Positions 20,451 through 22,785 of a stretch of 64,000 nucleotides of DNA are shown here, piece after piece. The DNA lies in NCBI GenBank assembly GCA_000165345.1, contig CM000435.1, forward strand, positions 96,001-160,000, given 5' to 3'. The first letter of the stretch is position 1. Every line of letters starts with the position of its first letter. The translations under genes and the position numbers were made by a program. The notes beneath the pieces are model-generated. The model saw only the letters and a program-made list of their open reading frames with translations. It searched no databases and was not told the DNA's origin.

Positions 20451-21401
20451 TTAAAGATTAAGGCTTTTTAAGTCTTGGACAAGGTTTTGAATAGATTCAA
20501 CTGATTTAGAAAATAATGATTTTTCGTCATCAGATAAATTTACAATAACAACGTCTTCAATACCATTTTTTCCAATAACAACAGGAACACCGACAAAAAG
20601 ATTGTTAACATTATACTGGCCAGTAAGATATGTTGAACAAACTAATACTGATTTAGAATCTTTCAAATAAGCTTGAGCCATAGCTACAGCTGAAGCGGCT
20701 GGAGCATAGAATGCTGAGCCAGTTTTTAAAAGTTCAACAATTTCACCGCCACCAAATGCTGTCTTCTTAATAATTTCATTGATTTGTGAATGAGTAATTT
20801 TTCCTTGCTCAACAAAATCACTAAGCAGAATTCCACCAATTGTAACTGAACTAGTTAATGGTATCATCTCATCTCCATGGCCACCTACAACAATGGCTGA
20901 TACATCAGATGGCTTTACACCTAATGCTCGACTTAAATTACATCTGAACCTAGCGGAATCAAGCACACCTGACATACCACAAACTTTATTAGCTGGTATT
21001 CCACTCTTTTCTTTAAAGTAGTAAACCATCGCATCTAGAGGATTAGTAATACATATTACAAATGCATTAGGGCAGTATTTACCGACATTTTCTGCAACTG
21101 AACCAACAATCTTTGCATTAACAGTAAGTAAATCTGAACGTGTCATATTTGGTTTTCTAGGAACTCCAGCTGTTATTATGACGACATCAGAGTTTTGTAA
21201 ATACTCATAGTTATTTTCACCAAATATTTTCGCTGGTGACCCAATCAATGCCATGCAGTGATTCAAATCTAAAGCTTTTCCTTGTGGAACTCCCTCAATA
21301 ATATCAAACATATAAACATCTCCTAAATCTTTTTGTCCTAAAAGAAGTGCTATAGTTGAGCCAATTTGTCCAGCTCCAATAATTGAAATTTTCTTTCTCA
21401 T
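20451..21401 (-). CDS. MDH: Malate dehydrogenase (LDH-like MDH family)
   Basis: Rossmann GAGQIGST, catalytic GGHGD. The active-site loop reads ITAGVPRKPNMTRSD, with Arg at the specificity position, which marks MDH. Confidence 0.85.
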   Translation of the reverse strand: MRKKISIIGAGQIGSTIALLLGQKDLGDVYMFDIIEGVPQGKALDLNHCMALIGSPAKIFGENNYEYLQNSDVVIITAGVPRKPNMTRSDLLTVNAKIVGSVAENVGKYCPNAFVICITNPLDAMVYYFKEKSGIPANKVCGMSGVLDSARFRCNLSRALGVKPSDVSAIVVGGHGDEMIPLTSSVTIGGILLSDFVEQGKITHSQINEIIKKTAFGGGEIVELLKTGSAFYAPAASAVAMAQAYLKDSKSVLVCSTYLTGQYNVNNLFVGVPVVIGKNGIEDVVIVNLSDDEKSLFSKSVESIQNLVQDLKSLNL

Positions 21402-21562
21402 AATTACAGTATTATATTTATAACTTATTTTTTTTAATTATATCAATAGAATTTCTCTATTTTATTGTGATCTATTTTCTTTTTCCCCTACTTAGCTTTT
21501 AAGATACTCATTTCCCACGCAATTATTACCTAAAACGAGGGGCGTAACAAATTCAAATAGCA

Positions 21563-21571
21563 GGCGGGAAA
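21563..21571. promoter_or_regulatory. E2F-like GGCGGGAAA box upstream of MDH (MDH/LDH spacer)
   Basis: The exact word GGCGGGAAA, with ATGGCGCGGC a few bases downstream. The same word recurs in other upstream spacers at 49943, 54671, 60235 and 63229, and as its reverse complement at 42511. Confidence 0.5.
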
Positions 21572-21819
21572 TTTGAACAGCTAATGGCGCGGCAACAAGT
21601 GCAAATTCATGCAACATTTGAAAGAAAATGAGAATAGAATAATACGCATTAAGTTTTTTTTTCTATTTTTTACTAGTAATTAATCCCGAAAACCCACATG
21701 CAATAATCTCAATCAGCCATCTCATACAATAAATGAAAGTTGGATGAGAGAATTTTTTTACATTTTTTGAATTACAGGATATCGCAAACAATATCTTATT
21801 GAAATAAGAAAAAATATTC

Positions 21820-22785
21820 TTATGCTCCAGCAGCTGGTGCATTATCCAACACCTTGGAAATAGTGTTGACTTCATTAATTGATTCCCCAAGAAGCTTCTG
21901 TTCTAGTGGAGTTAAGTCCAATTCGAGAATGTCCTCAACACCATTCTTTCCAATAATTGTTGGAACACCCATGTATATACCCTTTACACCATAATGGTTG
22001 GAGCAGAATGCAGAACATGGAACAACTGCCTTCTTGTCCTTTAGGTAAGCTTCAGCCATCTTAACAGCAGCAGCGGCTGGTGCAAAGTAGGCAGTTCCTG
22101 TCTTTAAGTTATCAGCAACTTCCTTCCATGCTATTCTGGTATGGCACACAATCTCATCAATTTGTTCCTGGGTGATAAGACCTTGCTTAATGAAGGATGA
22201 AAGAGGAACACCACCAACCGAAACTGAACTAGTAACTGGTACCATACCATCGCCATGGCCACCAATAACGTTGGCACTAACATCAGAAGCATTAACGCCA
22301 AAATGTTGTGCAATGAATGTTCTAAATCTAGATGAATCTAATACACCTGCCATACCACAAACTTTGTTATGTGGAAGCCCAGAAACCTTTTGGAAGTGTG
22401 AAACCATAACATCTAATGGGTTTGTGATACAGATGACAAAGGCATTTGGACAGTATTTCTTAACACCTTCGGCAACTGAATCCAAAATACGAGCATTTCC
22501 GAATAAGAGTTCAGAACGATCATCTTTTGGACGACCTGGAATGGAGGCTGTGATAATAACTACATCAGAGCCTGATATATCAGCATAATCATTTGTGCCG
22601 ATAACCTTTGATGTGGAACCAAACATTACCATAGAGTGGGTAATATCTAGTGCTTTTCCTTGTGGAATGCCTTCTGCAATATCAAAAAGTACTACATCGG
22701 CTAAATTGTCTTTACCTACAATATATGCAATATTACCTCCAATTTGTCCTGACCCAATAACGGCAATCTTGCGTCTTTCAATCAT
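21820..22785 (-). CDS. LDH: L-lactate dehydrogenase (derived from MDH by duplication)
   Basis: Collinear paralog of the adjacent MDH. The loop reads ITASIPGRPKDDRSE, with Gly at the position where MDH has Arg. The start is taken at MIERRKIAVIGSGQ (ATG at 22785-22783); the ORF-track extension to 22824 is probably 5' UTR. Confidence 0.85.
   Translation of the reverse strand: MIERRKIAVIGSGQIGGNIAYIVGKDNLADVVLFDIAEGIPQGKALDITHSMVMFGSTSKVIGTNDYADISGSDVVIITASIPGRPKDDRSELLFGNARILDSVAEGVKKYCPNAFVICITNPLDVMVSHFQKVSGLPHNKVCGMAGVLDSSRFRTFIAQHFGVNASDVSANVIGGHGDGMVPVTSSVSVGGVPLSSFIKQGLITQEQIDEIVCHTRIAWKEVADNLKTGTAYFAPAAAAVKMAEAYLKDKKAVVPCSAFCSNHYGVKGIYMGVPTIIGKNGVEDILELDLTPLEQKLLGESINEVNTISKVLDNAPAAGA

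Follow-up and report, generated by a model that had tools for sequence, protein, structure and literature searches.

A 64,000-nucleotide stretch of DNA (assembly GCA_000165345.1, contig CM000435.1, positions 96,001-160,000 of the forward strand; hereafter the window, in whose positions all coordinates are given) carries two adjacent paralogous genes, one for a lactate dehydrogenase (LDH) and one for a malate dehydrogenase (MDH). The pair is almost certainly best explained by tandem duplication of an MDH gene in Cryptosporidium, followed by conversion of one copy to an LDH with glycine at position 102; codon selection is the probable cause of the higher guanine-plus-cytosine (GC) content at third codon positions (GC3) of the LDH gene. 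The genes' identity, their residue states, the tandem layout and its persistence in C. andersoni, the separation from LDHs of the insertion type and the codon composition are shown here; what the enzymes do, how strongly LDH is expressed and their place in metabolism come from the literature, and codon selection as the cause of the GC3 difference is what we infer. The locus, the Gly102/Arg102 states and the lineage-specific conversion are all already known, and nothing is added here to their biology; the locus was described, according to papers that cite the work, by Madern, Cai, Abrahamsen and Zhu (2004, Mol Biol Evol 21:489) and was analyzed in Boucher et al. (2014; PMC4109310). It represents a classic neofunctionalization, an LDH having arisen from an MDH separately from the LDHs of other apicomplexans, and the LDH is a validated drug target in a glycolysis-dependent parasite (PMC4642935, PMC6687188, PMC5665856). 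Only an asymmetry in conservation between LDH and MDH, and a set of contaminant sequences labelled Escherichia coli, are mildly new.

Both genes lie head to tail on the reverse strand, the glycine copy (LDH) being 5′ of the arginine copy (MDH) on the coding strand. A preliminary description of this DNA had reported two same-strand paralogs 418 bp apart with the glycine copy upstream, which the open reading frame (ORF) list and the coordinates reproduce exactly. It had also read the loop residue that determines specificity as Arg in the downstream copy (hence MDH) and Gly in the upstream copy (hence LDH); the AGA and GGT codons concerned were located at the positions listed below, and the refuting case that it had named, Arg in both copies, did not hold, the upstream copy having Gly.

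20451..21401, reverse strand: MDH gene (CpMDH, CpMDH1, cgd7_470), 316 amino acids, ATG start, LDH-like MDH type
21138..21167, reverse strand: MDH active-site loop GVPRKPNMTR, protein residues 79-88
21156-21158, reverse strand: MDH specificity codon AGA (Arg82, equivalent to Arg102)
21402..21819, reverse strand: spacer from the LDH stop to the MDH start, 418 bp, 28% GC
21820..22785, reverse strand: LDH gene (CpLDH, CpLDH1, cgd7_480), 321 amino acids, beginning MIERRK, first ATG at 22785
22516..22545, reverse strand: LDH active-site loop SIPGRPKDDR, protein residues 81-90
22534-22536, reverse strand: LDH specificity codon GGT (Gly84, equivalent to position 102)

Conservation of the specificity and catalytic residues was surveyed in an alignment of 145 fetched related proteins. 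Position 102 was occupied by Arg in 128 proteins, by Gly in 16 and by Lys in one, and Arg was present in all 128 MDH-type sequences fetched. Arg109 and Asn140 were invariant (145/145), Asp168, Arg171 and His195 were found in all 144 proteins covering those positions, and both window proteins carry all five residues. The Gly102 set consisted of Cryptosporidium LDHs, with C. parvum, C. hominis, C. meleagridis, C. tyzzeri, the chipmunk genotype, C. ubiquitum, C. canis, C. felis, C. xiaoi, C. ryanae and C. andersoni as the named taxa, and of a few contigs labelled E. coli; these contaminants apart, none of the 145 proteins from any other named organism had Gly102. Alignment of nine named Cryptosporidium LDHs showed the loop SIPGRPKDDR to be identical in eight and to read SVSGRPKDDR in C. 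andersoni, and all nine had Gly102 without a five-residue loop insertion. That insertion, together with Lys102, was found in Plasmodium falciparum LDH (PfLDH), Toxoplasma gondii LDH1 (TgLDH1) and a reconstructed ancestral LDH (the PfLDH, PfMDH and TgLDH1 references used were 100% identical to PDB 3ZH2, 5NFR and 1PZE, respectively). It is missing from the window LDH, whose loop needs no gaps when aligned with the MDH loops and carries, beside Gly102, lineage-conserved changes of Gly99 to Ser and of KPNM-T to RPKD-D.

The E. coli-labelled proteins with this loop (P0015, P0019, P0022 and P0026, annotated as ‘malate dehydrogenase [Escherichia coli 1-110-08_...]’) come from contigs of at most 1150 bp and carry SIPGRPKDDR; their identity to each of the named Cryptosporidium LDHs is only about 90-95%. 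Judged by these features, they look like contamination of E. coli draft assemblies by a Cryptosporidium species otherwise unsampled here. A Gly102 enzyme outside Cryptosporidium was considered and rejected, as none was present in the 120 best relatives once the E. coli-labelled proteins were taken as contaminants.

The products of the two genes match crystallized proteins of C. parvum. MDH is identical at 316 of 316 residues to PDB 2HJR, the crystallized C. parvum malate dehydrogenase, and LDH is identical at 320 of 321 residues to PDB 2FN7 and 4ND1-4ND5, the C. parvum LDH, for which the PDB molecule name is ‘Lactate dehydrogenase, adjacent gene encodes predicted malate dehydrogenase’. The lone mismatch, and thus the only difference between the CpLDH1 construct and the window LDH, is at residue 184, which is Val in the window (GTT, 22234-22236) and Ala in 2FN7/4ND1-5. 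Val184 is present in every genome-derived C. parvum LDH entry, and the mismatch is a construct or clone difference, not one between species. By exact-sequence look-up both proteins were found under C. parvum accessions, including QOY40360.1 (MDH), QOY40361.1 (LDH) and WKS78726/7, whose contigs measure 1.32-1.36 Mb, with a maximum of 1,363,666 bp. Comparison with the cgd7_470/cgd7_480 products, as the preliminary description had proposed, gave exact matches to the C. parvum Iowa II proteins, with no differences over the shared length from EAK90670 (MDH) and EAK90671 (LDH), and the IOWA-ATCC proteins were also exact; C. hominis differed by four residues in MDH and one in LDH. In CP141124.1 and CP029786.1 the locus lies at roughly 155.7-162.7 kb, flanked by the neighbours that it has in the window, and the LDH-MDH spacer measures 418-419 bp across three C. 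parvum assemblies. These matches identify the window as C. parvum chromosome 7 and the genes as its known LDH/MDH tandem pair, CpLDH1 (2FN7, 4ND1-4ND5) and CpMDH1 (2HJR) being the same genes, with identical tandem order, Gly102/Arg102 states and chromosome. Given exact C. parvum protein matches and one and four differences from C. hominis, the pair anchors the taxonomic assignment as had been suggested, and its best matches do not lie outside Cryptosporidium/Apicomplexa.

An ungapped alignment of 306 residues gives 54% identity between the MDH and LDH products (E=3e-117), a level of similarity that places their paralogy far beyond chance, and both match the Pfam domains Ldh_1_N and Ldh_1_C with E-values of 1e-30 to 1e-43. 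In line with the earlier assignment of both genes to the LDH-like MDH family, both pass the cut-off (283 bits) of the bacterial-type MDH subfamily NCBIfam PRK06223, with 420.6 bits for MDH and 387.3 for LDH, and neither reaches the cut-offs of the canonical L-LDH models TIGR01771 (303.55 bits; both proteins 244-247, LDH 246.9) and PRK00066 (339 bits; both proteins 230-243, LDH 230.2). The MDH equivalog TIGR01763 (cut-off 351.85 bits) is passed by MDH at 360 bits, with LDH just below at 330.8. According to these profile scores the LDH is, by descent, an MDH-family protein that has gone from the MDH equivalog, and only the Arg copy is an MDH equivalog. Canonical L-LDHs (TIGR01771) have in common with the Gly copy the reaction, the Rossmann fold and the catalytic His/Asp/Arg; however, they have Gln102, and the window LDH, with Gly102 and a score below the cut-off, is not a member. 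The best-matching family of both window proteins is that of LDH-like MDHs from alpha-proteobacteria (TIGR01763/PRK06223), at 52-56% identity and with equal protein length and loop length. The window LDH differs from these in being without Arg102 and below the MDH equivalog cut-off, and both window genes, unlike theirs, are eukaryotic and located on a parasite chromosome.

The same arrangement was recovered in C. andersoni, where contig LRBS01000093.1 carries an LDH gene (321 amino acids, SVSGRPKDDR) followed after 306 bp by a same-strand MDH gene (319 amino acids, GVPRKPNMTR), with identities to the window proteins of 75.4% for LDH and 68.0% for MDH. Upstream of the pair lie an unannotated gene of 185 amino acids and RPAP2/Rtr1, zinc-ribbon and WD40-cyclophilin genes, which correspond to window positions 23676-24320, 24374-26104 and 26916-29252. 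The shared tandem and neighbourhood imply that the pair and its functional signatures predate the split between gastric and intestinal Cryptosporidium. Between the two window genes, coding DNA is 61% identical, with a nonsynonymous divergence (dN) of 0.41 and a synonymous divergence (dS) of about 1.4, which is saturated. Because dS is saturated and the pair is already present in C. andersoni, the duplication is recent in relative terms only and not ‘very recent’ absolutely; that wording, found in the 2004 paper's title, is meant against the duplication, some 700-900 million years old, that gave rise to the other LDHs of apicomplexans (PMC4109310). Gene conversion between the copies was also considered and rejected, on the grounds of the 61% DNA identity, a longest exact run of 16 nucleotides and a best 60-nucleotide window of 80%.

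The two copies differ in their conservation within the genus and in their codon use. Between C. parvum and C. ryanae, LDH is 93.8% identical and MDH 74.7%, and between C. parvum and C. xiaoi the values are 92.2% and 77.2%. The preliminary description had noted that LDH looked GC-richer than MDH, and this difference is real and concentrated at third codon positions: overall GC is 40.7% in LDH vs 34.5% in MDH (Fisher p=0.005) and GC3 is 28.7% vs 18.4% (p=0.003), against a window background of 21.3%, with GC1 and GC2 slightly but not significantly higher in LDH. C-ending codons, with a C/(C+T) ratio of 0.29 in LDH vs 0.17 in MDH, and AAG, with 15 of 20 Lys codons in LDH and 6 of 22 in MDH, account for the excess. 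A regional rise in GC is ruled out by the 28% GC of the spacer flanking LDH. In a microarray study, LDH (cgd7_480) ranked first among all genes for expression in oocysts (PMC3542205), and the most likely source of its higher GC3 is selection acting on a gene with very high expression. The greater conservation of LDH within the genus and its stronger preference for C-ending codons and AAG point to different constraint on the copies after the conversion. There is about an even chance that the young LDH came to be the dominant redox enzyme, under strong constraint and at high expression, and that MDH drifted to a less constrained role.

In this superfamily, Arg102 forms a pair with oxaloacetate's second carboxylate, and loss of the Arg disfavours oxaloacetate and admits pyruvate (PMC4109310). 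The same study assigns to Cryptosporidium LDHs both Gly102 and an independent duplication, with citation of Madern et al. (2004). On the favoured explanation, a single alpha-proteobacterial-type LDH-like MDH, acquired by apicomplexans, was ancestral to both copies and was duplicated in tandem within the Cryptosporidium lineage. In one copy the Arg102 side chain, with its hold on the second carboxylate, was lost in favour of Gly, and Gly99 changed to Ser and KPNM-T to RPKD-D, changes that probably produced a pyruvate-reducing enzyme between them. The other copy kept Arg102 and stayed an MDH, and both retain the hydride-transfer machinery of His195, Asp168, Arg171 and Arg109. A preference of the window LDH for pyruvate/lactate over oxaloacetate/malate is what we infer from its 320/321 identity to CpLDH, which has been crystallized and characterized kinetically. 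In the parasite, which is without a Krebs cycle, LDH regenerates NAD+ for glycolysis, and MDH converts oxaloacetate to malate, regenerating NAD+, with malate feeding malic enzyme (PMC11461325, PMC4642935).

Relationships among these enzymes were examined by neighbour-joining with 200 bootstraps on 40-42 sequences, in three analyses whose results hold with and without reconstructed ancestral proteins. The Cryptosporidium LDH clade was recovered at 99.5-100% bootstrap and the Cryptosporidium MDH clade at 100%, and all apicomplexan sequences split from the alpha-proteobacterial MDHs at 100%. If the Gly copy were an orthologue of the Plasmodium/Toxoplasma LDHs, derived from one ancient MDH-to-LDH conversion, the position of every apicomplexan LDH and MDH on one side of that alpha-proteobacterial split would fit. 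Insertion-type LDHs (P. falciparum LDH and T. gondii LDH1/2) also have in common with the window LDH an alpha-proteobacterial-type LDH-like MDH origin, the fold, the residues His195, Asp168, Arg171 and Arg109, and the glycolytic NAD+ role. However, the idea is refuted by loop architecture, since the insertion-type enzymes have Lys102 and an insertion from which the specificity residue, Trp107f, comes, whereas the window LDH has Gly and no insertion; the window LDH is 42% identical to PfLDH/TgLDH1 vs 53% to its neighbour MDH; and none of the 200 bootstraps in any of the three analyses joined Cryptosporidium LDHs to insertion-type LDHs. We give such orthology virtually no chance, and on these comparisons a shared origin of the Cryptosporidium and Plasmodium/Toxoplasma LDHs is rejected, as PMC4109310 likewise concludes in describing the two as convergent and of independent origin. 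It is extremely improbable, too, that the Gly copy goes back to a further, independent transfer, in which a bacterial MDH landed beside the resident one, with no tandem duplication. Such a transfer would be in keeping with the similarity of the LDH to alpha-proteobacterial MDHs (52-56%), which is about the same as to Cryptosporidium MDHs (53-54%), and with the limited union of the Cryptosporidium LDH and MDH clades given below, but the 100% split leaves LDH on the apicomplexan side, same-strand head-to-tail adjacency is kept from C. parvum to C. andersoni, and Gly102 appears in no bacterial sequence among the 120 best matches.

Several results nevertheless weigh against duplication within Cryptosporidium followed by conversion, and affect how its parts are to be read. 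Cryptosporidium LDH and MDH formed one group at only 54-60% bootstrap in the analyses that included C. andersoni MDH and at 46.5% in the first tree, which was without it, the main alternative (35-38%) being that the LDH clade was drawn to the long branch of PfMDH. With this union only moderate, duplication within the lineage rests partly on the tandem layout and on published likelihood trees, which nest the Cryptosporidium LDHs within apicomplexan MDHs (PMC4109310); the trees obtained here are compatible with those trees and are no proof of them alone. The claim of a lineage-specific MDH-to-LDH conversion by duplication agrees with PMC4109310 and with the complete lack of bootstrap grouping with insertion-type LDHs; in phylogeny, which the preliminary description had proposed as a check, the separation from insertion-type LDHs and the apicomplexan/alpha-proteobacterial split were recovered, and the union of LDH with MDH only at the values above. 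Furthermore, replacements at position 102 of an ancestral MDH, Gly included, raised pyruvate activity and yielded no highly specific LDH (PMC4109310), and Gly102 alone is therefore no proof of LDH function. The LDH assignment of 21820-22785 rests on its 320/321 identity to the characterized CpLDH and not on Gly alone, and, because Gly at 102 alone gave no highly specific LDH, the accompanying substitutions beside it are probably part of the specificity switch. On the side of codon use, GC3 in C. andersoni is 23.1% for LDH vs 18.5% for MDH, a difference of the same sign that is not significant (p=0.17), which leaves the codon-selection explanation without independent replication.

This last result bears on the possibility that the GC and GC3 excess of LDH reflects amino-acid composition, local mutational bias or chance and not expression-linked codon selection. 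The slight, non-significant increases in GC1 and GC2, the weak replication in C. andersoni and the even higher GC3 of another ORF of the window (54842-56836), for which no high expression is known, are all in its favour. Against it, the significant part of the excess is at third positions, where for the same amino acids C-ending codons and AAG are used more; the non-coding DNA on the flanks, at 28% GC, gives no sign of a regional rise; LDH is the most highly expressed oocyst gene reported (PMC3542205); and between species LDH has changed less than MDH, as a highly expressed gene would be expected to. We consider a cause of this kind rather unlikely, although much less so than either alternative origin of the Gly copy, and favour codon selection. 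The earlier suggestion of different expression or codon pressure on the two copies accordingly fits the reported oocyst expression of LDH and did not find independent replication in C. andersoni.

The regions upstream of the two genes, which include the spacer listed above, continue beyond the LDH start as follows:

22786..23675, no strand assigned: AT-rich divergent intergenic region from the LDH start to the 214-amino-acid gene, 890 bp
23676-24320, forward strand: gene of 214 amino acids, divergent from LDH

The spacer (21402-21819) presumably holds the 3′ end of LDH and the MDH promoter, and 22786-23675 is the presumed LDH promoter. The spacer shows, as sequence matches only, an E2F-like TTTCCCGC 170 bp before the MDH start codon, a CGCGCC at -190 and TGCATG twice. 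These patterns were absent from the 890 bp upstream of LDH, save for one CATGCA at -470. A duplicated promoter was rejected, since the upstream regions of LDH and MDH have only short AT-rich chance matches in common, and the two paralogs appear, from this comparison, to have unrelated promoters.

An alternative LDH start at a TTG codon (22824; ORF 21820-22824, 334 amino acids) was rejected, as the crystallized and GenBank proteins of 321 amino acids begin at the ATG at 22785. Two antisense ORFs on the forward strand, 22172-22588 (138 amino acids) and 22595-22837 (80 amino acids), overlap the LDH gene wholly or for the most part and have most likely arisen by chance from its higher GC content. 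The ORF at 54842-56836 (reverse strand, 664 amino acids) has the highest GC (42.4%) and GC3 (37.1%) of the long ORFs of the window, and a Pfam search with it gave no match at E<=1e-5. On the other side of the pair, a P-type ATPase gene (15961-19836, forward strand) is convergent with the MDH gene, and its gene models disagree, with 1291 amino acids in two assemblies and 1236 in CP141124.1.

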